DNA of 61,047 bases, counting the filler, from Dugesia japonica (lineage: Eukaryota): the NCBI GenBank assembly GCA_001938525.1. It is 5 parts of 5 records of this genome, joined end to end, with 100 filler letters (N's around TTAATTAATTAA, not from the genome) between each part and the next. Parts side by side here need not be neighbours in the genome. Positions count along the whole stretch, not along the records: positions 18,223 to 31,876 come from MQRL01636593.1; 4 more parts are not named here. One strand, written 5' to 3'. The notes beneath the pieces were generated by a model. It saw only the letters and a program-made list of their open reading frames with translations. It was not told the origin of the DNA and did no database searches. This document shows, piece by piece, positions 9,433-56,942 of this stretch; positions within the stretch are counted from its first letter, which is position 1; each line of letters opens with the position of its first letter. The position numbers and the translations under genes are program-made.

Positions 9433-9532
9433 NNNNNNNNNNNNNNNNNNNNNNNNNNNNNNNNNNNNNNNNNNNNTTAATTAATTAANNNNNNNNNNNN
9501 NNNNNNNNNNNNNNNNNNNNNNNNNNNNNNNN
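9433..9532. other. Artificial contig linker (44 N + TTAATTAATTAA + 44 N)
   Basis: The same 100-bp structure occurs four times; the 12-mer gives stops in all six frames. Confidence 0.95.
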
Positions 9533-15163: not shown

Positions 15164-15814
15164 CTATGAATATTAAAGAATATTGAAAACAGAAAGAAAA
15201 TATTTAATAAATAAATATGAAGTTCTATAATATTTTATTAGTGAAGATAAGATTAATTAATAATCAATAATTATGATTAGTGCACGGAATTTAGTGATAT
15301 TTCATTTTCTAGAGAAATCACACAAATGTCTGTTTAGAAAATGGTCGTGTTTTAGCTTAGTTCCAAGGGAAATGGAACATAACTAAATTTTTTTGATAAA
15401 AAGTTTATTTAAAATTTTAAAAGCAAAAGATCAAAATTGTTGTTCTATTTTTGTAGATGGTTCAATATTTCGGCTATTAATAGATAAATATTAATAGATA
15501 AATATTATAAAATTTTAATACCATTTAAGAAAAATTTAACAACAATATCGAACCGTTAATTTATATGAAAACAACAATATTTAACTGATTATTTTTTAAT
15601 TTAACATTTTNNNNNNNNNNNNNNNNNNNNNNNNNNNNNNNNNNNNNNNNNNNNNNNNNNNNNNNNNNNNNNNNNNTGGAAAATTCATTAGCATACTTAT
15701 CGTTTAGTATACCAACAATTATTAGAATACAATGAAAGAATTTACTGTGGATTTAATTATCTATTTCTATTGGAAATATAAAAAGTTTATTCAGCGACAA
15801 AATTAACCAAAGAT

Positions 15815-17655
15815 CCAATCGTCTCCAATGAGCTGTTATTAGCGCAATATATTCGTTCCTCGCTTTTCTCTAACATTGTTTCTCAGAGTTTATTAAATCC
15901 TTTCATGCTCATCACATTTATTCTTGCTCCTGTATCCAAAAAACAATCAAACTGTTCACTCTTGATCATCACGGAAATACTGGGTCTCCCTTGCATTTTA
16001 TCATACGAAATTTCTGCATTCTGTTTTTCTTCAATTATTCCTATCACTTCTGCTTTGTTAACTTCCGCATCATTGAAACTTTCTCTTTTTAAGAATCTGT
16101 AGACATTTTATCTCACTTTACTAATCTCATCCCATTTCTCGGCCTCTTGAGGATATTCAAACGGTATCTCGTTCAATGGATTGCTCCGACCAACTTTTCT
16201 ACTGACGGAGCCCTGCCTTTTGGGTATTCTCTTCTTGGATCATCATTTTCTATTATGCTCTCAGAAAATCTGTCTTCATTCTCGTCATCAAATTCTTCTC
16301 GAATGGCATGAATTGGTTTTGTCCGATTCCAATCTTTCGTTTGTTGCCTGTTTCTAAAATTGTATCTTCTCTCTTCTAGTCAAGGTTTATTAATGTTCGA
16401 ATAACATTCTTCTGCTCTGTGACCCGGTCTTTTACATCTATTGCATACAATTTCTGTGCACATCCTTCTGACATGACCAATTTTACCACACCCAAAACAT
16501 TTTGGTGGTTTCTTGTCTGGACAATTTCTACTTAAATGTCCTTTTTTGTGACAAGTCCAACATTCCACTTGAGAATTTTTTGGACACTCTCTTTGTGTAT
16601 GCCCATAACTCTGGCATGTTCAACACTGTGGTTATGTTCTTTTTGTAACTCTCTCAATATTTTGTCTCCTTTCTCCAAAACGTTCTCCGCGTGTTACACC
16701 AGCGTAACTGTTTACTACGTTAATGGATTCTCTTCTTTTTATTTTTTCCACCAAAGATAACGTTTCTTATGTCTTCTACTTTCTCCAATTTTCGCATAAT
16801 AATCTGTTACGTTTGATTTTTTACTATTTGCACAGATTATTAGCATTTTTGATAAGAGTTTTTCTTACGTCAGTTCTCCAGTTGCTAAAGATTTATCGAC
16901 CAAATCTTCCACTCTTTTAAAAAACACATAAAATTCTTAATCACCACGTTTATGGCTTACAAGATTCTGTAAATCTTTTATTATGTATCTCTTGCTCTTA
17001 ATAGCTAATCGCAATCTCTCTCGATATCCATCAGCTTTCTTCAACTTCTTTACATATGCTTCCATTGAATCTTCATGAAGCATACATGTTACCCAACGTT
17101 TCTGATCTTTCTAGGCAATGATGTTCTTTGCCTCAGAGTATATTTCACACCGTTTGATAAACTTCCTTAGATCTGCAAAACATTTTTTTCGGCAACAATC
17201 TTTCTGTGATTGCATCGGTGTTTACCGCTGCCACAATGTTAGTTGGGTTTTGAAAACTCATCGAATCATTAACATCAGAATTCAAATTTATTACAACGAT
17301 TTATTAATATAAAAAAACTATATATGATTTAAAAAAATACATTACAATAGAAATTTAATTTTATATTTTATTATATTTAAATTATATTTGATTTTAAAAA
17401 AATATATTAAATAAAAATCTTTTGTTCATTTCATTTTATATTTTAAAAAATCCTTAAATTTAAGTAATTTGTTTTATAGTTTATTTTCTTGATATATTTT
17501 TAATTATACTTTTGATTTTACTAAATTCCGTTTTTAAAGATAAAAAATTTTAAATCTGTTCTTTTAAAAAACTATCTTATANNNNNNNNNNNNNNNNNNN
17601 NNNNNNNNNNNNNNNNNNNNNNNNNNNNNNNNNNNNNNNNNNNNNNNNNNNNNNN
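15815..17655 (-). mobile_element. Truncated Ty3/gypsy copy: 5' LTR, PBS, gag with three CCHC knuckles, protease
   Basis: LTR end ..CTAACA at 17237 followed by a tRNA-Leu-like PBS TTGTGGCAGCGGT; CWTCHKKGHLSRNC, CFGCGKIGHVRRMC, CNRCKRPGHRAEEC; protease FLDTGARINV near 15920-15950. Confidence 0.88.
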
Positions 17656-18122
17656 AAATATAAAAAGTTTATTCAGCGATAAAATTAACCAAAGATTTAC
17701 TTTAAAAAACAATTTCATTAATAATATTTTTAATCAAATTTCAATAATCTAATAATAATGAGAATTAAATAAAAAATTCATGATTAATTAACTAATTAGA
17801 GTTAGAAGTAAAAGGATGGATTTACATAAAATACCGATTAATTTTATTATAAATAAAAAATTTTAAAAAGCCACTAAATAAAAAACGTAGAGTATTGAAC
17901 ACATTATTTTTGACATGGAATTAGTATAACACATGTCAGCAAAAATATCAATTACTTTTTCAAAAAAATTATAATTGAAATAAAATTTCTGGAATGCCTA
18001 TAAATTAATTGGAACACATTTAACATTATGATTTTATTTAGTGATGATATTAATCGTGGTTATGTTTCTTGATTGCCCAAGAAGTCAATAAGAGTTATTA
18101 CTATTATTATAATAATAATAAT

Positions 18123-18222
18123 NNNNNNNNNNNNNNNNNNNNNNNNNNNNNNNNNNNNNNNNNNNNTTAATTAATTAANNNNNNNNNNNNNNNNNNNNNN
18201 NNNNNNNNNNNNNNNNNNNNNN
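18123..18222. other. Artificial contig linker
   Basis: 44 N + TTAATTAATTAA + 44 N. Confidence 0.95.
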
Positions 18223-18429
18223 ATTTTATGTTTTGATTAGTCTTTTCATTTTTCTTTTATATATTATTAATAATATTGTCTGAGTAGCATCTAATCTTTA
18301 TATTGCTCGGAGCGATTAATATTGATGTTAATATTGGTCGTAGGGAAATTCACTTCAAAATTTGAAAATTTAAACAAAATAAGTTTTCCCATCGATTTTC
18401 TTTAAAAAATTNGTAAAAATCNTTAAATC

Positions 18430-19299
18430 ACTTNATTTAAATAAAAATCTGAAAATTCAGTAATTTTAAACAATGATAAAGATCAATTAATTTAAACAAA
18501 AAATAAATAAATAAAGATTAAAACAAAAAATATTATGTCAGCGCGGGAAGTTTAAATATCAAGTCTGCCCGGGGAATTTAAAGATGATGTTTATCAGATG
18601 ACCTTGAACTACTTCGACCAATCAGATCGCAAGATACTATATCACTTTGAACGTAAACTACTTCGACCAATCAGATCGCAGGATACTGTATCACTTTGAC
18701 CTTTAAATACTTTGACCAATTAGATAGCAAAATACTTCATTACTTTGACCTTGAACTACATCCATCAATCAGATCGTAGGATACTATATCACTTTTACTT
18801 TAAAATGCTTAGANNNNNNNNNNNNNNNNNNNNNNNNNNNNNNNNNNNNNNNNNNNNNNNNNNACTTAATTTAAATAAAAATCTCAAAAATCATTAAATT
18901 AAAACAAATCACAAAAAATCAATTACTTTAAACAAAATTAAATAAATAAATAAACATTAAAACAAAAAATATTGTCTGCGCGGGAAATTTAAATATTAAA
19001 TCTGCGCGGGAAATTTAAATATTAAGTCTGCCCGGATGATAGTTGTCATGGAAATAACCCTGACCTACATTTAGTCGACCTTGAAATATTACCCCAATCA
19101 GAACTGAGTTAGCTAAATCATTCTGAAAATTAAACCTTGAATTATTGCAGCCAATGAGAATGAAGTATACTAAAACACTGACCTTGAAAATTTAACCTTG
19201 AATTATTTCAGCCAATGAGAATGAAGTATACTAAAACACTAACCTTGAAAAAATTGACCTTGACGGGGGGGTGTTCCAGTGCGCCACTATCTATCGACT
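18430..19299. mobile_element. Terminal region of a Polinton/Maverick-like element with two tandem regulatory modules
   Basis: Ends in GCGCCACTATCTATCGACT at 19299; duplicated ~430-bp module holding GCGCGGGAAATTTAAA repeats and 49-61-bp TGACCTTGA/CCAAT repeats. Confidence 0.6.
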
Positions 19300-19435
19300 C
19301 ATTTTTCATAATACTCACTTGATTCTAATTCTACTTAATCTCTATTGGTCAATGGTGTCAGTTTAACAAAAGAATTTAAATAAAATAAAATCATATTAAA
19401 TAAAAGAAATCTGGCTATAGAAAGTTATATTATGG

Positions 19436-19666
19436 TTAATTCCATCCNNNNNNNNNNNNNNNNNNNNNNNNNNNNNNNNNNNNNNNNNNNNNNNNAACTG
19501 CAATCTTGATCTGGAGCAAGCACACATGGATCATCTCATTAGTTACTTCTTCAACCATTTTTTGGTAGATTCTTCCGAATGGGAAATCGTTGTAGAAATG
19601 AGGTAACCAGAGGTTACCTTTAAGTAATGAGTTCCTGGTTGGATTTGTTTCACGTTTGGTTTCCAA
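19436..19666 (-). pseudogene. Short orphan ORF downstream of the CCAAT/TATA promoter (TTG start, contains an N gap)
   Basis: ORF track plus its position relative to the promoter; no homology recognised. Confidence 0.35.
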
Positions 19667-19741
19667 AATTTTTTTGATTGACTTTCAGTTAAATTTTCGC
19701 TTTGGAATTTTTATGAGTTATTTTCGTCTGAAATTGAAATG

Positions 19742-19882
19742 GTATTTATACTGTTTCTCTTTACATCCTCGTTTCTTTCATTGGTTACTTAACGTCGTAT
19801 CATTTTTCTAATGTTTCTATTGGCTTTGTCGTCACATGAGTTATTTTATTGGTGGTTATTTTTAGGATTCCAAAATTATTGG
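19742..19882 (-). promoter_or_regulatory. TATA box with four upstream CCAAT boxes
   Basis: TATAAATAC at 19750-19742; CCAAT on the minus strand at 19780, 19819, 19848 and 19878; a short ORF (19436-19666) follows. Confidence 0.6.
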
Positions 19883-20683
19883 TCAATCTTCAAACCCTTG
19901 TATCTTTTTTCTGAGTCTCGTTATGATTTTTTAACTTGGATTTTCGAAATCTCCGATTTTTTTCTTGACCATAATCTTCTTAATTGCTAATTTTTGCACC
20001 TAGGGAAGTCGTCATTTTTGCCATATTTCACAAAATATTTCATTTTCTTTTAAAAATAAATCATTTTAATTCGTATGATTTATTTTATTTAAATAAATTA
20101 TTTATTTTCTTCTTAAATATTAATTATATGTTCATTCTTTGCTTTTCTGATCTGAAATTAATTTAAGTTCATCGTTTTTTCTTTCATTAATTAATTTAAT
20201 TAATTCCTTTTATTTATTTTCTCTTTCTCCAATTATTAGCTCAATATTGTTTTCTTAGTTTTGCCTAATGAACTAATTGTCATTCCTTATTTTCTTTATC
20301 TGACTGATAGCTTAACTTCTATTACTTTTTTCTTCCTTTTGGCATTCTTATTTTTGAGTTATTTCTTGCTGTAACTTTAGATTTTGCTGGTTATTACGTT
20401 AGTTTTAACTACCAACCTTGGTTTTTCTTTTAATTATTTCTTTCCTTCAATGAATTGTGACTTTCCTTTATCTGGAATCTTTGTTTCCCCATTTGGTGAC
20501 TATCTTTTCATTTTCGACTTTACCTACCGCCATTATTATTTTCCATACCAGTTGTTTCATCCCAAAAATTGGAAAAAAAGAATTTAAGATCAAGGAAAAT
20601 TTTCATTTGTTCATTATGTTTTGGGTTAAAATAAAACCTGTTTTTGAACAGTTTTTATAAATTAAATGAAAATAAAACTCTTA

Positions 20684-20952
20684 AGTAGATAGATAGTGGC
20701 CCACTAAATTATCTCCTACAGTTGACGTAAGAAAATTATTACTTAAGCGATTTAGAAATTTTCAAGTATTTTCAAGAATTTTCAAGTATTTTAGGCAGCG
20801 AACAAAATTTATGTTCGATTACAAATGTTTTGCTCGTATTTTATAAAGTTTGACGAATTATTTTCAAATTTTAGGCTTTCCAAATTTCGGTCCAAATAAA
20901 GGTTTCAACATAAAAATGTAGGTTTTATTGACCTTGACGGGGTCAAGGTTAT
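20684..20952. mobile_element. Terminal fragment of the AGTAGATAGATAGTGGC family
   Basis: AGTAGATAGATAGTGGCCCAC at 20684; 10-bp tandem repeat; hairpin ACCTTGAC-GGG-GTCAAGGT at 20931-20949. Confidence 0.55.
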
Positions 20953-21425
20953 AGGACATCGAATATAGATACATTCAATAAAGGTAAGAAAGGATAATTG
21001 CAAGAGAACTAGTGAGAGGAAGCTAATGCAAATAATGACAAGAAAAAGTGAGATAGTATTATCTAATTTACTTGAAGTCAAATAATTTTGTCTGAAATTT
21101 ATATGAACTTTTTTCAAATCGTTAAAATCAAGTAATTTACCCACCAATCTTTCAATTAATGTTTTAATCTATTCATACCTTATTTAATATAGTCTATATT
21201 AATATGAATCTATACTTTACAACCAATAATTATTCATGGTTAATTTTATTCACAAATTTTTACCTTAATATAGAAAATCCCTCGAGAAAATAGATAGACA
21301 TTTTTACTAAAAAAACAATTTAAAATTCATTTAATTTTCTTAGATAAATTAAATAAAATAATTAAATAAATTAAAATTAAATTTCAAAAAGAAAAAACAA
21401 ATAATTTAAATGATACTAAAATTAC

Positions 21426-21779
21426 CGGATGTGTTAATTTTAGATCTTCGAAATTTCCAAGTTTGCCCATTAATTTTCGATATAAAACCGGAGGCAATTT
21501 TAAATCCAATATAACATTATTATATATAGCTAATCCCAAAATAATTCCTATTAATTTATATTCTCTGTGCAATTCTTCCATGGGAAAAGGGTTGAACCAA
21601 AACATATTTGTTTCGTCATTATAAACAAACATTCCATAATCCGGATTGAATATTTTTTCCACAATTAATTGAAAAAATTCTTTACTAACGCCACCTTCAT
21701 CAATAGTTTCTTCATTTTTAAATTCAATATAAAGTCTCCTTTTCAATTTATTAGTTCCAGTTGAAATTGTAAATTCTAG
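21426..21779 (-). CDS. UBE3A: UBE3A/E6AP HECT E3 ligase, HECT N-lobe exon
   Basis: LKRRLYIEFKNEETIDEGGVSKEFFQLIVEKIFNPDYGMF..FWFNP..LGLAIYNN..YRKLMG; splices in frame from DDALNG at 29139. Confidence 0.95.
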
Positions 21780-27610: not shown

Positions 27611-29138
27611 CATTAATCATACCAAAATTTTATACCATCACATAGAAATCTAAGCCAACATGTAAAATACAGGAATAATTACTGAAAATAAACACTTCAA
27701 CATGGAAAATAATATCTATATTTTAAACAGCTTTTGTCAAATATTGATTTTCTTGACTTTGAAAATATTTTAGTAATCTATGTCATCTCATTACGCATCC
27801 ATTGAAACTAAGTTTATCTCAATAGGATTATATATTTAGAGGAACTGGAACAAATTTTTCGCAAATGCGCGATAACTCATTATCTGATCCAGTGCGCCAC
27901 TGCCCGTTATATTGAGAACAACGCACTTTGCCATGCAAGTCTTTTAGACAATATATAGACAGAATTTTGGTCCCACCTCGTTAGAAACGATTTCGATTCG
28001 AAAATGTGAAAAATAATAATGTGCTGTACCGTGCTGTTCAGTGCAAAAAGTGTTTTTTGTGAATATCGATTAGCTTATTTGGCCCATTTACATAAAAATA
28101 GCACCAAAATATGCAGTTACGAAATTCCGCGTACATAGATACCAAAATTTATCGGCTCAGAACAAAAGCATTGTGTTTTAAAAATNNNNNNNNNNNNNNN
28201 NNNNNNNNNNNNNNNNNNNNNAAAAAAATTTTTAACCATTAAAACAAAAAATTATTTCCCATTACGAAAACATAAATTTTGCCTCAACTGTTACTTTTTC
28301 TGTGGCGGGTTGAGGTCATGCGCTCTTATAAATTAGCAATTTTCTTATAAATTACATTTGGAAAGTTCCGTTAAATAAATTTTATTAAATAATTAAACAG
28401 TTCAAAATTATTATAGACTTGCGATTATTTTGTAAAATTATTTGTAGCAAATCTCATGACGATCTTGTTTATAGTTAATGAAAAAAAATTCTTGGAATTG
28501 AAATATTTAATAGAAGGAAATATTTCAAAAATTTATATTTAAAGTTTTTCAAGTGATTTTAACAGTTTAAGACATTTATTGTTTAAAGTAAATTTAATTG
28601 CAAAAAATAATAAGCAATAAAATTTAGTTAAAATAATTTTAATTAGAGAAATAATTGCATTTTGTTATTTTATTAAGTTATCTTTGAATTTTGTGAATAA
28701 ATTATATCTGAAAGTATTAACGTTTGTATTGAAAATAAATTGTCTTCTGACGATTTTCCTAACACTTAATATTAAAAGATGAAAATAATTACAAGAAACA
28801 AAGTTAAATATAAAGTTAATATTTTGCAAATTGCCAATTTTGTGAAGGATTTTCATAAATGAATACTTATCGTTTTATGTTTAAAAAGAAAATATTTTTG
28901 CATCCGTTAAATTTTATTTTATTTTTACTCGAAATGAAATATTTTTAATTTGTACGTACTAAAAGGACAAATAAAAGACCAAACTGCAATTATACAAAAA
29001 ATTTTACATATTTAAATTCAGGCCTTTAAAAACAAATTACCAGCAAAATATATATAATTAATAATAAAATATATTAAAGTTTCAGAGACACAATTCTTAT
29101 AACTTCACACGAAAAAAGGTAAAATCAATCAATATTAC

Positions 29139-30290: not shown

Positions 30291-31221
30291 CTGAAATACG
30301 CGAAGTAAAATTATTGAAAAAATTATAATAAAGTCTAATAATAATGTATTGTATGCAAATAATAACACTACTGTAAATTAATATTAAATCTTTGAACAGT
30401 AAAATAAAACCACACCATTTTTTTAAATATTTTAGCCGTGTTTCGATCGTATTTCCGGTCATTTTAAGAAATTTAAATTTCAAATGCGCTCAAATTTAGT
30501 ACTATTCGACTCATAATTAAAAACTGTCTATATATGGTCTAAAGGACTACTATTCTAATGACTACATTGCACGTCCGTTGCATTTCATGACTACTATTGA
30601 AAAACGCTTCATTGACGTAGTTTATAACCTCTCAAATCCCGACGGCAAAGTGATAAATAATCTCATTAGACGAAAAATTTTCTAAGTGTATCAGAATTTT
30701 ATTGATAGAAATTTATACGTGGACAATTTAAAAGATAAGTTTGCTTTAATTCTTCGCAGGCAATTTAAATTTTAAAGTTTTCACGGTTTATGTATTTCTT
30801 TTAACAACGTGAAATTTTTTCGCGGTTAATTTGAATTATTTAATTTTTATTTTATTGCTTTTACATTATTTATTTTTTTCGCATAATTTTGAAATTAATT
30901 ATTTTAATTTTAAATTAATTTTAAGTAACTTTAATTTAAATTTTAAGTGCGAAAATTTTTAAGCTAATGAATTTTATGTTAGAAAACTTTTAAGGTATGA
31001 TATTTTAACTTCGAAAAATATTTTTAGCATGGAAATTTTAAATTTTAAATTTTAAGATTGAAAAATTTTTGTTTGTAAATTTTGTAATTGGTAAATTAAG
31101 TTGGAAAATTTTATTTAAAGTTTTTAACTTTAAAATTTTAGATTGAAAATTTATTTTCGAATTTGGTTTTTAAATTTTTAAATTTTAGTTGAGTTTATGA
31201 AAATAAATTTTAAGCGATGAA

Positions 31222-31330
31222 AGTAGGCAGATAGTGGCGCATGACACCACTACCTCCTCCCGCCAAGGTCACGATAAAGTGGTTACGTATACTTGATTTG
31301 GATTGGTCGAAATTTTCCAAGGTCACATTT
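31222..31330. mobile_element. Terminal fragment of the AGTAGATAGATAGTGGC family
   Basis: AGTAGGCAGATAGTGGCGC followed by CAAGGTCA, ATTGG and CAAGGTCA, the mirror image of 19200-19299. Confidence 0.6.
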
Positions 31331-31876: not shown

Positions 31877-31976
31877 NNNNNNNNNNNNNNNNNNNNNNNN
31901 NNNNNNNNNNNNNNNNNNNNTTAATTAATTAANNNNNNNNNNNNNNNNNNNNNNNNNNNNNNNNNNNNNNNNNNNN
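31877..31976. other. Artificial contig linker
   Basis: 44 N + TTAATTAATTAA + 44 N. Confidence 0.95.
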
Positions 31977-33531
31977 TGATATTTTAAATGCAAAAGGTAT
32001 ACAGCTCAGATGCAACACACATACACTGAAAATTACATGCCTATGAATTTCAGTCTGTCCCATCCCATGCTAAATATAGAGGCTCCAAGTTAGATATATT
32101 GGCTCCCTATTCAAAATTTCAAGACTGATCATACCATGCAAAATACCAAGACTCTGATATCTTGTATTAATATCTTGTAATAATATCATAAAAAATATCA
32201 AGACTGCCAATAACATGCATATATTTCTTGTAATAATATCTTAAAAAATATCAAGATTGCCCATGCCATGCATAAATATCTTAAAAAATATCAACATTGC
32301 CCGTTTTATGCAAAATATAGAGACTCTGCATGCAAAATATCAAGACTACCCCATCTCTTACACAAAAAAGTCATTTAATTTAATTTAATTTAATTTAATT
32401 TAATTGCAATAAAAGATTTCCCCCCATTGCAATAAAAAATTTCCTTTTTTTTAAATTTCCCGCCAAAATAATTTTTTTTGAATTTTCCGCCAGAATATTT
32501 TTTTTGAATTTCTCGCCAAAATAATTTTTTTTGAATTTCCCGCCAAAATAATTTTTCAAAAATATCAAGACTCCCCTCTTCCCCAGTCGAAAATATTACA
32601 AAAGAACACTTCCCCGATCAAAATACCGAAAAAATAACCAAAAATACATCAAAAACTCAAAAATGATATNNNNNNNNNNNNNNNNNNNNNNNNNNNNNNN
32701 NNNNNNNNNNNNNNNNNNNNNNNNNNNNNNNNNNNNNNNNNNNNNNNNNNNNNNNNNNNNNNNNNNNNNNNNNNNNNNNNNNNNNNNTCTTATAAAATCC
32801 GATAATTAATTCTCTTTCCACACATACCAACCTCCACCTCACGAAAATATTTTTTAACACATCTTTACTACTTACAAAATAAACCAATCAAAAAGTAGCC
32901 TTTAAAATAAAAAATCAAAGCACATTCGACAACCAACATCTTCACCATCACATTACCTCTCCAACAAGCCATCAAGCAACAAATTCCATCAACAACATAA
33001 AAAACTACAACCAAAAGAAATACCACCCACGATAACTCATATATTGTGCCCGTGTGATGAAAACCATCCATCCAAACTCATAAGTTCTTTAGACAATATA
33101 TAGACCAAATTTTTGTCCGACAAGAAAAATCTTCAAAATCCAAAAAAAATTATCTCCAAGATCTCCAGCTACTCTTCCTCGTTTTTTCCAGTCTTTTACA
33201 CACACACAAACACAACTTGACCTTCTTTTTAAAAAGCACCTTAACAACCCAAACACAAAGAAAATTTAAAATTTCAAAATACACACACACCTTCAGGATC
33301 AAAAAAATCTAATTAGATAAAAAAAAAATTTGATCCGAGCAAAATATTTTTGATCCCAAAAATCTTAGAAAAAAAATCGATCACAAAAATCATGGTTAAA
33401 AAACGCAGCTTAAGCGTAATGTGTTTCCGAGCCCCCCCACGGGGAGGGGGGCTCGATAACTACTTAAAAATAATTGTGCCCGAATTTTAGCTCATTGCCA
33501 AATTGTGCCCGTGTGCCACTATCTATCTACT
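31977..33531. mobile_element. Terminal region of the same family, abutting a gypsy pol fragment
   Basis: Ends in GTGCCACTATCTATCTACT at 33531; ATGCAAAATATCAAGACT-type repeats at 32020-32360; four TTT(G/A)AA-N4-(C/T)CGCC units at 32450-32544; ATTGTGCCCG three times; GC hairpin at 33428-33456. Confidence 0.6.
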
Positions 33532-33900
33532 CACCTTTTGTATTAGCTTTAAGAAGATTCGTTTCACTCAATATCTCTAATACTTGTAGCACTGGCCAGA
33601 ATAAATATTTATCTTCATCTTTCTAATTTACAATTGCAGGTGATCAAAAAGTTAGTTTCATATGTTAAGACTAAATTTTACTTTTGTGCTTCGATTACGG
33701 TAGCTTCATTGCATTCTATAAGGTGAGCCCATTTCCATGCCATTCTATCTTATGTAATTACAATTAAAGATAGTTTTCGTTAAATATGGTATATAAATCA
33801 CTTGTAATCACCTGCATCTTTTTTAAAGTTTCATCAGATTTCATATAAGAACAACCTAGAATATTTTTTTATCGTTGCTTCATAAACTTTAAGAATTTTC
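33532..33900 (-). mobile_element. Gypsy RT/RNase H remnant
   Basis: Decayed FLGCSYMK, WHGNGL, SPAIVN and downstream RNase H-like segments on the minus strand. Confidence 0.5.
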
Positions 33901-39012: not shown

Positions 39013-39172
39013 CTGAAGAAATTGCTTTATTCATCCTAAAACATTTAAAAATATTAATGTTTAGATTCTTATTTCAAAAATCTGTTTATTTATTTTTTGA
39101 AAAATCTTTAAAAATCTGATTTTGTTTATTTGATTCAATGAATTTATTGCTAATATCAACAATACTTAAATA

Positions 39173-40114
39173 ATGTCAAATTTAGAAAAAATTATGAATA
39201 ATAATAATTCTCTTAAAGAAAAACTTAAAGAGGTTCGAGAAGAATATAAAAATACAACATTTACTCCTCAAATGTTAAATATATTTGGTATTTGTTGTAC
39301 ATTATATTTTCTAACTTTTTGGTTTTTTATAAATTTTTATATTTTATTGGATTATTATTCTTGGTATTTTTTACAGAACCGATTATTCCTTATTTTATTC
39401 TTGTTACTAGAAATAATTGTCAATTATATGAAATGTGTTAAATCTCATAAAGATATTGCATTTTGTTCTCGATGTTTCTCCAATGGTATTTCGCAAGATC
39501 CACCACAAACTCCAAATCAATTTAATATTTACGAAATATGTGATAAATGGAAATTTTGTTTATCCTGCCAAGCTGATGTGCCACCTAGATCTCGTCACTG
39601 TAATGTTTGCCAAGTATGCATTCTAAAAGCCAACCATCATTGTTATCTTACTGGTAGATGTGTTGGATTTACCACGAAACGAAGATTCATTGTTCTGTGT
39701 TTCTATACAGTTATCAGTTGCTTTTATACAGCTTGGAATATTGGTTCTTATTTAGATAACTATTATATTTCACTGAGTTTCTCTTCTGTTAATATTTTAA
39801 ATTACGTTCTTCCTATCCCGATAATTACATTTCTTTTTTCTTCAAAAATAACATTGTTTTTTGTTTTTCTTTTAATTAATCTATATATTTCATTTGGTCT
39901 GGCCTTAATTGCCTTATTTCATTTCATTTTACATACAATATTAACTATAACCGGACAATCTTCTTATGAAGGATTCCATTTAATTCGACGATATCAAATG
40001 CATCAGAAATTCAATATCGAATCGGTTTTCGGTAAAAGTGTTATTTTACATTTTCTGTGGCCATTTGAAATGGAAATTCTCGGAAATGGATTTCATTGGC
40101 CTATTAAAAATTGA
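39173..40114 (+). CDS. DHHC-family palmitoyltransferase (ZDHHC22/24-like), intronless, NHHC variant
   Basis: CxxC..PPRSRHCNVCQVCILKANHHCYLTGRCVG cysteine-rich domain, multiple TM helices, TGQSSYE (TTxE-like), C-terminal GNGFHW. Confidence 0.92.
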   Translation: MSNLEKIMNNNNSLKEKLKEVREEYKNTTFTPQMLNIFGICCTLYFLTFWFFINFYILLDYYSWYFLQNRLFLILFLLLEIIVNYMKCVKSHKDIAFCSRCFSNGISQDPPQTPNQFNIYEICDKWKFCLSCQADVPPRSRHCNVCQVCILKANHHCYLTGRCVGFTTKRRFIVLCFYTVISCFYTAWNIGSYLDNYYISLSFSSVNILNYVLPIPIITFLFSSKITLFFVFLLINLYISFGLALIALFHFILHTILTITGQSSYEGFHLIRRYQMHQKFNIESVFGKSVILHFLWPFEMEILGNGFHWPIKN

Positions 40115-40286: not shown

Positions 40287-40386
40287 NNNNNNNNNNNNNN
40301 NNNNNNNNNNNNNNNNNNNNNNNNNNNNNNTTAATTAATTAANNNNNNNNNNNNNNNNNNNNNNNNNNNNNNNNNNNNNNNNNNNN
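40287..40386. other. Artificial contig linker
   Basis: 44 N + TTAATTAATTAA + 44 N. Confidence 0.95.
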
Positions 40387-55329: not shown

Positions 55330-56244
55330 CTGTTAATCAATATTCATCAATAATTAACTTGCAATAATTTCAGAGATTTTTTCATTATAAGTAAATTATA
55401 GAGTACTTCACAAATTAGTTATTTTTCAAAATCATTAATTTGTATACAGAGTATTGAATTATATCAATATAATTACAATCTATCTCATTTGATTAATTTA
55501 ATGCAAAATATTTGTTTTGTAAAATATAAATGTAATTACAAAAAATAATATGAATGAAGAATTTTTAACAATAATATGGTGATGATAGAAATTATTTATA
55601 ACTACATAAAAATAATAAATAGAATAATGTTGATGTGTTGAGATGAATTTCTTAACGACTACGAATCATGTGAATTGAACATTTAATTGGAAATAGTAGA
55701 GGAATAAATAAATGATTTACAATCACAAGAATTATTGCGAGAATAATCGTATTAAAAGCTTCGATCAAAATGTTGTTTTGTTTTTTTATTTATTTTTTGG
55801 TAGTTATCCGAATTTTCGACTATTCTCTTCTTCAGGAATTGAACTTTTTAATTTATTCAAGAATTTCTGCACAAAGAAATAAAACAACATTTTGATCGAA
55901 GCTTTTAATTTAATGAATACATAAATAATTTACAAAGTATAATTTTCTTGATAACACCACATCAGTTATTTTCAACCAATCTATCACGATACTCTGTTTT
56001 TTCATAAGAAATTGTAGTGGGTTAAGTTAAATTTGCTTTTAATAAACTTATTTTAGACCAAAATCAATGAGGTTTAAAAAATATTATTCATCGATTACTT
56101 TCACCATATTCCCCACAATTAAATCCAATCAAGGAGTATTTGAATCATTTTAAATCAGTTTTGAATTCAATTCACCATTTTCCAAAAGTAGATTGAATTT
56201 AAAAGAAATGATTAATAGGATATTGAGAGATGAAAATATGACAT

Positions 56245-56942
56245 ATTTTGTTAATATATTAATTCATATTTGTTAATATATTAATTCATATTTGTTAATA
56301 TATTAATTCATATTTGTTAANNNNNNNNNNNNNNNNNNNNNNNNNNNNNNNNNNNNNNNNNNNNNNNNNNNNNNNNNNNNNNNNNNNNNNNNNNNNNNNN
56401 NNNNNNNNNNNNNNNNNNNNNNNNNNNNNNNNNNNNNNNNNNNNNNNNNNNNNNNNNNNNNNNNNNNNNNNNNNNNNNNNNNNNNNNNNNNNNNNNNNNN
56501 NNNNNNNNNNNNNNNNNNNNNNNNNNNNNNNNNNNNNNNNNNNNNNNNNNNNNNNNNNNNNNNNNNNNNNNNNNNNNNNNNNNNNNNNNNNNNNNNNNNN
56601 NNAATTCATATTTGTTAATATATTAATTCATATTTGTTAATATATTAATTCATATTTGTTAATATATTAATTCATAATTGTTAATATAATAATTCATATT
56701 TGTTAATATATTAATTCATATTTGTTAATATATTAATTCATATTTGTTAATATATTATTCATATTTGTTTATATATTAATTCATATTTGTTTATATATTA
56801 ATTCATATTTGTTAATATATTAATTCATATCTGTTAATATATTAATTCATATTTGTTAATATATTAATTCATATTTGTTAATATATTAATTCATATTTGT
56901 TTATATATAAAGATTCATATTTGTTAATATATTAATTCATAT
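56245..56942. repeat. 22-bp minisatellite (TTAATATATTAATTCATATTTG)n
   Basis: Near-perfect tandem units on both sides of an N gap. Confidence 0.95.

Follow-up and report, generated by a model that had tools for sequence, protein, structure and literature searches.

CDE/CHR-like words arrayed in the end of a high-copy planarian repeat: candidate docking sites for host cell-cycle factors

Introduction

Why should the end of a dispersed repeat carry, several times over, a word that resembles the composite element of cell-cycle promoters? The question is raised by a locus of the planarian Dugesia japonica (assembly GCA_001938525.1), lying within a stretch of 61,047 nucleotides that was analysed as a whole and is called the window below. 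An initial annotation had read four GC-rich hexamers, each followed after four bases by TTTAAA, as DREAM/MuvB-type sites tying a mobile element to proliferating or germ cells. Neoblasts are the dividing cells of planarians, and hence those that pass on new insertions. E2F/CHR-like words similar to these occur in some C. elegans repeats.

Publications are cited here from excerpts. LIN54 binds TTYRAA, and in many DREAM promoters a CDE lies four bases upstream (PMC4974476); the consensuses BSSSSS and TTYRAA appear in C. elegans work (PMC5683655), which also describes a hybrid E2F/DP-LIN-54 motif (PMC5683655, PMC3093354). In the related planarian Schmidtea mediterranea, E2F, DP and Rb are present (PMC5176148), and a factor table lists lin54-1, lin54-2, e2f5, nr5a2 and six NF-Y subunit genes; the shares of lin54-1 (0.53), lin54-2 (0.46) and e2f5 (0.43) are highest in the cycling X1 cell fraction (PMC9522251). 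Judged from this relative, in which both are present, the host probably does not lack E2F and LIN54. The same species' neoblast promoters are described as lacking enriched motifs and its transposons as little accessible (PMC10558129), and its PIWI-silenced transposons are awakened on differentiation, not in neoblasts (PMC8532177).

Results

All four words were found where the initial annotation had placed them, at 18541, 18567, 18978 and 19004 (Table 1). The 26-bp spacing it reported holds inside each pair and not between the pairs, which lie 411-437 bp apart, and its description of the genome as CpG-poor is wrong for the window, where CpG observed/expected is 0.92 at 26% GC (GC-poor, not CpG-depleted). 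The CHR reads TTTAAA in 4/4 sites, a form of TTYRAA that is common at 26% GC, which counts against reading host-factor docking into the sites; the CDE four bases upstream fits BSSSSS-N4 in all four. The full word TTTCCCGC, which we take to be the E2F octamer, is held by two of the four sites only (18978 and 19004). The DREAM composite call agrees with the published geometry, TTYRAA with a CDE four bases upstream, in the excerpt of PMC4974476; the stricter mammalian CDE code given there, SGCGCS, has no match at the four sites.

Enrichment over shuffled controls, a check proposed with the annotation, was clear. The window contains eight occurrences of SSCGG-N4-TTYRAA; 100 shuffles gave an expectation of 0.12 and a largest count of 1. 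A spacer of 4 gave these eight matches, each of the other 12 spacer lengths tested 0-2, and TTYRAA follows at 4 nt after 8/66 SSCGS cores (background 0.7% per position). The eight matches fall into three contexts: the main element, the isolated site at 30821 and, at 32445-32556, an array with a 27-bp unit. Under a first-order model three or more contexts have P = 0.006 and two contexts P = 0.05; two of the three contexts belong to related repeats.

A single 26-bp tandem unit underlies all four sites. It recurs in two blocks offset by 434 bp, 18430-18585 duplicating 18864-19022 at 84% identity, so that the sites count as one event. On the plus strand the order is block A', block B', 50 N, block A, block B and the end at about 19300. 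The element begins directly after the linker at 18123-18222, which leaves its other end out of view.

Table 1. Features of the element, its relatives and the adjoining linker (positions in the window)
Feature	Position	Strand	Remarks
Linker	18123..18222	.	44 N, TTAATTAATTAA, 44 N
Block A'	18430..18585	+	AT-rich stretch and two 26-bp units; 84% identical to block A
CDE/CHR-like site 1	18541..18556	+	GCGCGG-GAAG-TTTAAA; unit 1 of worn block A'
CDE/CHR-like site 2	18567..18582	+	GCCCGG-GGAA-TTTAAA; fits BSSSSS-N4-TTYRAA, without E2F octamer
Block B'	18599..18813	+	4.2 copies of 49-bp unit with TGACCTTGA and CCAAT box
Block A	18864..19035	+	28-bp AT-rich repeats and 2.7 copies of 26-bp unit
CDE/CHR-like site 3	18978..18993	+	GCGCGG-GAAA-TTTAAA; full E2F octamer abutting CHR
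CDE/CHR-like site 4	19004..19019	+	16-mer identical to site 3, 26 bp further
Partial final 26-bp unit	19017..19035	+	Fifth unit; GCCCGG (at 19030) without CHR
Block B	19076..19263	+	Diverged B'-type units, 61-bp period; CCAAT at 19094, 19151, 19212
Conserved element end	19281..19301	+	Reads AGT.GATAGATAGTGGC inward; last base 19299-19302
Worn related end	20684..20960	-	TGACCTTGA word within hairpin 20931-20949
Single site	30821..30835	+	CGCGG-TTAA-TTTGAA in degenerate block-A-like stretch
Related end	31222..31330	-	Two CCAAGGTCA words and one CCAAT unit homologous to block B
Sister array	32445..32556	-	4.2 copies of 27-bp unit, TGGCGG-GAAA-TTYAAA; motif kept in 3/4 units
Related element end	33513..33533	+	Same contig piece as sister array

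CCAAT boxes accompany the CDE/CHR words, as is usual in cell-cycle promoters according to the annotation: six CCAAT..AGA words lie in 18618-19216, four of them fully flanked, and because of the block duplication they stand both up- and downstream of the CDE/CHR sites. The TGACCTTGA of the 49-bp unit is TCAAGGTCA on the opposite strand. This 0.8-kb end holds 4/5 of the full NF-Y 11-mers in the window and 4/5 of the TCAAGGTCA words, about 0.3 of each being expected per window; the consensuses are those we take to represent NF-Y and NR5A-type binding. Pfam searches of the read-through frames of 18223-21428, 19496-20604 and 32788-33347 returned nothing at curated cut-offs, and the window had no Rfam match.

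The proposed comparison of motif and flank gave a divided answer. Between the two blocks, 23/24 core letters are identical against 107/128 flank letters, a difference that is not significant (p 0.20), and the 4-nt spacers agree in 6/8 letters. Between main and sister array, 13/15 motif letters are kept against 6/16 flank letters (p 0.009), a comparison that is partly circular, as it is anchored on the motif by which the sister array was found. The two motif letters that differ in the sister array, C/G in the CDE and T/C in the CHR, are ones that the consensus leaves degenerate. The motif is kept in 7/9 tandem units of the two arrays, and across eight B-type units of 74% mean identity CAAT forms the sole run of four invariant columns. 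Tandem amplification and homogenisation preserve any unit, which counts against reading selection into these figures.

The sister array shares its core with the main array, with different flanks and an opposite orientation to its end; array and end are linked by their place on a single contig piece, where 1 kb that includes an N run separates them. The opposite orientation of the two arrays to their ends speaks for a docking platform more than for a core promoter. The end word GCGCCACTATCT has four matches in the window at <=2 mismatches against 0.53 expected, and the four end sites align across AG-T..GATAGTGGC. An inward-facing pair at 31222/33531 spans a linker, and no target duplication was seen there.

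Several further observations concern these relatives. The stretch 30730-31200 holds degenerate block-A-like units outside the end at 31222, an arrangement that differs from the main element. The stretch 27885-27976 shares CCAGTGCGCCAC with the main end and includes 40 bp that are 85% like 33082-33121; judging by this likeness it is probably another related fragment. A strong GC hairpin (33427-33456, z -4.5), placed some 60 bp interior to the related end at 33533, resembles the ends of Helentron-type non-autonomous elements, and ATTGTGCCCG stands both before and after the stretch that holds it.

That the sites lie inside the element terminus, as annotated, is borne out by public DNA runs, in which depth drops just beyond 19300; the sites are 280-760 bp interior to this conserved end. 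The T at 19296 is present in nearly all aligned depth, and in run X17 average depth beyond 19294 corresponds to about 7 bases at end depth, which places the boundary near 19301. Public DNA runs carrying three organism labels contain the family at very high copy number. Part of 18864-19447 was found in 20/24 public runs listed and half of its words in none, and no RNA run among those listed holds this stretch. Four of those runs were aligned to 18435-21000 at 80% likeness. In run X1, summed contig depth is 257,000 for block A and 232,000 for block B'; it is 21,800 at position 19296 and drops to 132 across the unique stretch 20585-20670. Single listed contigs have depth 8-22, and the figure set against block A and the end is 14-22. 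Such sums are not copy numbers and give orders of magnitude only; their ratios suggest ends numbering around a thousand and roughly tenfold higher coverage of units. Site 3 falls in the bin of highest family depth. Runs X17 and X18 hold the family too. X17 carries another organism label and leaves 20585-20670 uncovered, and is thus probably from a different species; X18 may come from a closer relative. Joints and loose ends in the DNA runs indicate that unit numbers differ among copies, with many back-jumping joints. No variant position was seen at 18978-19019 among 40 of 564 rows, which is no proof of constancy.

Outside these runs, viral contigs gave 0 matches for three patterns. Four metagenome loci matched a 19-mer of the end and were judged to do so by chance, as only 20-26 bases are shared; their ORF lists, inspected by eye and not by Pfam, contain no recognisable mobile-element gene.

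The suggestion that the element spreads ready-made cell-cycle promoters fared poorly, since no gene start was found beside this copy and no common RNA start was seen; the excerpted S. mediterranea neoblast chromatin study also opposes it (PMC10558129). The left neighbour lies behind a contig break. The host exons closest to the element come from the middle of a HECT ligase gene and of a KCC transporter gene, with no later HECT exons between 18223 and 21428 and only transporter residues 426-732 in the window. One KCC exon is 93% identical to S. mediterranea Slc12a-1, the other matches listed being 61-66% identical; by sequence likeness, the KCC exons (93-94% identity) indicate a paralog or a related planarian and not Slc12a-1 itself. 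Identical linkers of 44 N, TTAATTAATTAA and 44 N stand at 9433-9532, 18123-18222, 31877-31976 and 40287-40386, and, given how incomplete the host genes are, sequences on either side of a linker may not adjoin in the genome.

RNA run X24 yielded 1,232 reads from 13.6 million read. One of them matches this copy at >=99%, 964 lie under 90% and 89% continue into unlike sequence, so the reads come almost wholly from other copies; no common start was found among the 1,232. Over the element, 67-90% of first mates map to the minus strand, which would indicate plus-strand RNA, provided that the library follows the common stranded design; read starts are confined to few places, so the bias could stem from a handful of host transcripts. 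An outward start behind the CHR, considered because the RNA/DNA ratio (x0.001) rises from 0.32 in block A to about 2.0 in the last 170 bp, was not used, as reads and contigs differ in sample and method and a bin that is partly masked reaches 1.9 as well.

Discussion

We regard the element as a high-copy, non-coding (or truncated) DNA-transposon-type repeat, a class inferred from its anatomy. No transposase was found in the scanned stretches (18 selected ORFs; six frames of 18223-21428 and 32788-33347), nor was a second end or a target duplication seen, so the term DNA transposon rests on anatomy. This copy is best read as a worn passenger, not a host-gene promoter. For the family, we tentatively favour candidate host-factor docking, in which subterminal arrays would keep a DNA transposon switched off while cells rest and make it available once neoblasts cycle. 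The CDE/CHR words would have been shaped by binding of host E2F/DP together with LIN54 (MuvB), and those of the second unit by NF-Y and an NR5A-type receptor. The element end may then act as an orientation-independent docking platform, which DREAM would hold off in non-dividing cells and which would be released in cycling neoblasts.

The same words could instead be neutral, a GC-rich word, possibly a captured piece of a host cell-cycle promoter, amplified without gain to the element even if bound. We consider this possible, with somewhat less confidence. It accommodates the descent of all four sites from one unit, unit numbers that vary among copies, a motif-versus-flank test short of significance, and the loss of the E2F octamer in sites 1 and 2 and of the motif in 2/9 units; MITE amplification, moreover, spreads internal words whatever their role (excerpt of PMC5950925). 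It sits less easily with the recurrence of one core in two arrays of different period, flanks and orientation, with CAAT as the best-kept run of the second unit and with three promoter-type words occurring together. In another reading the arrays would serve as the element's own transposase sites, as in Foldback-type ends, their likeness to CDE/CHR and CCAAT being coincidental. Variable short units beside a fixed end are how Foldback/Mutator elements such as Tm1 are built (excerpt of PMC3169594), and the differing orientation of array to end is unlike a fixed core promoter, but the coincidence would have to cover an E2F octamer, an in-register CHR and a fully flanked CCAAT at once, and we find this reading improbable.

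That a host gene next to the locus uses it, from the outset or by co-option, as a cell-cycle promoter appears very improbable. Its content matches a cell-cycle promoter and MITE promoter co-option is documented in C. elegans (excerpt of PMC9757741), but six-frame Pfam searches of 18223-21428 found no family above cut-off, the nearest exons are the mid-gene HECT and KCC pieces, and there is neither an RNA start nor more than a trace of reads from this copy. Host-factor docking also has a far-reaching form, in which a transposon family with DREAM/NF-Y response arrays would gate its activity to cycling neoblasts and would have sown at least some ten thousand E2F-LIN54 sites, enough for a DREAM sink or for stem-cell enhancers; we hold this to be rather unlikely.

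The closest parallels lie in known repeats and promoters. MITEs in Brassica and Arabidopsis amplify E2F sites (Henaff et al. 2014, cited in PMC5950925) and are likewise non-autonomous DNA elements multiplying an E2F word. E2F is bound in vivo there (excerpt of PMC5950925), whereas the planarian array is known from sequence; the latter is animal and composite, with E2F and CHR in a 4-nt register and CCAAT/TCAAGGTCA units. The CDE/CHR (DREAM/MuvB) promoter element and the C. elegans hybrid motif, as excerpted, have the same BSSSSS-N4-TTYRAA geometry. The planarian sites differ in being tandem, in lying in a dispersed repeat and in having an orientation to the element end that is not fixed; since no gene start is linked to them, we do not file the array as a CDE/CHR promoter. 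CERP2/CELE2 MITEs of Caenorhabditis are similarly repeats that seed thousands of paired host-factor motifs, with other motifs and another factor, HIM-17, and with germline promoter co-option demonstrated (excerpt of PMC9757741).

As to class, the fixed outer motif and variable tandem units recall Foldback/Mutator ends such as Tm1 of root-knot nematodes, and an end of variable unit number is present here on one side; that class is marked by a target duplication of about 9 bp, paired ends and a MULE transposase partner, none of which was in view here, and no sequence likeness between Tm1 and the planarian element was noted in the excerpt (PMC3169594). Polinton/Maverick TIRs share the AG/AGT start and the length falls within their 46-1,447 bp (PMC8097293), and Polintons are present in S. 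mediterranea (PMC10558129, PMC8532177). The ends here read AGTAGA/AGTCGA/AGTAGG instead of the end motif (AGT)2, (AG)3 or (AC)3A, which the excerpt of PMC8097293 lists for vertebrates. No Polinton gene (protein-primed polymerase, integrase) was found in 18 selected ORFs or in six frames of 18223-21428 and 32788-33347, though the interior of the element may be missing. Polintons also have paired inverted ends and a 6-bp target duplication; here the opposite end is lost at the contig break. LTR retroelements have TG...CA ends, and the four window end sites (4/4) start with AG or RAG, unlike a gypsy/Burro LTR. A primer-binding-site reading of TGGCGC was dropped, as the four ends diverge right after TGGC. 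Helentron-associated non-autonomous elements carry a stem-loop near the 3' end; no significant fold was found at 19245-19310 (z 0.46) or 18270-18330 (z -0.89). Human LTR12, which is bound by NF-Y, is also a mobile element rich in CCAAT boxes, but is a retroviral LTR, and the planarian end is not TG...CA (excerpt of PMC11802806). The excerpts of PMC6431247, PMC10748475 and PMC11410931 hold no comparable end sequences.

In the literature searched, which included few subscription papers and lay outside Repbase and Dfam, no description of CDE/CHR arrays in planarian repeats, or of this family, was found; the family may well have an entry in those libraries. E2F-site amplification by transposons is known in plants, and a planarian array combining CDE/CHR with CCAAT was not found described. 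If the repeat holds thousands of well-formed DREAM/NF-Y sites, the idea is testable on existing neoblast data and knockdowns, and, were docking real, such sites would have been overlooked by repeat-masked, promoter-centred studies and a transposon would be timing itself to the heritable cell pool of a fission-capable animal. If the words are passengers, this is one more repeat multiplying a binding word.

Other features of the window

A separate multi-copy repeat at 19348-20584 adjoins the element end, with RNA mates biased to the other strand. It contains four ATTGG words 29-39 bp apart (19784-19882) and no Pfam family, and a solo-LTR reading of it was rejected, no target duplication having been found. 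At 2262-2601, tandem repeats of 92-98 bp carry CAAAATGGCCG and TGACTCA words, which we take to be YY1-like and AP-1-like, respectively. Near-identical 41-bp stretches (15775-15816 and 17657-17697) flank a gypsy-type gag/protease fragment, and a 22-bp tandem array at 56242-56942 has inverted arms around a 282-base N run. Finally, 39170-40114 holds a single-ORF DHHC palmitoyltransferase, for which one relative was found, at 66% identity.
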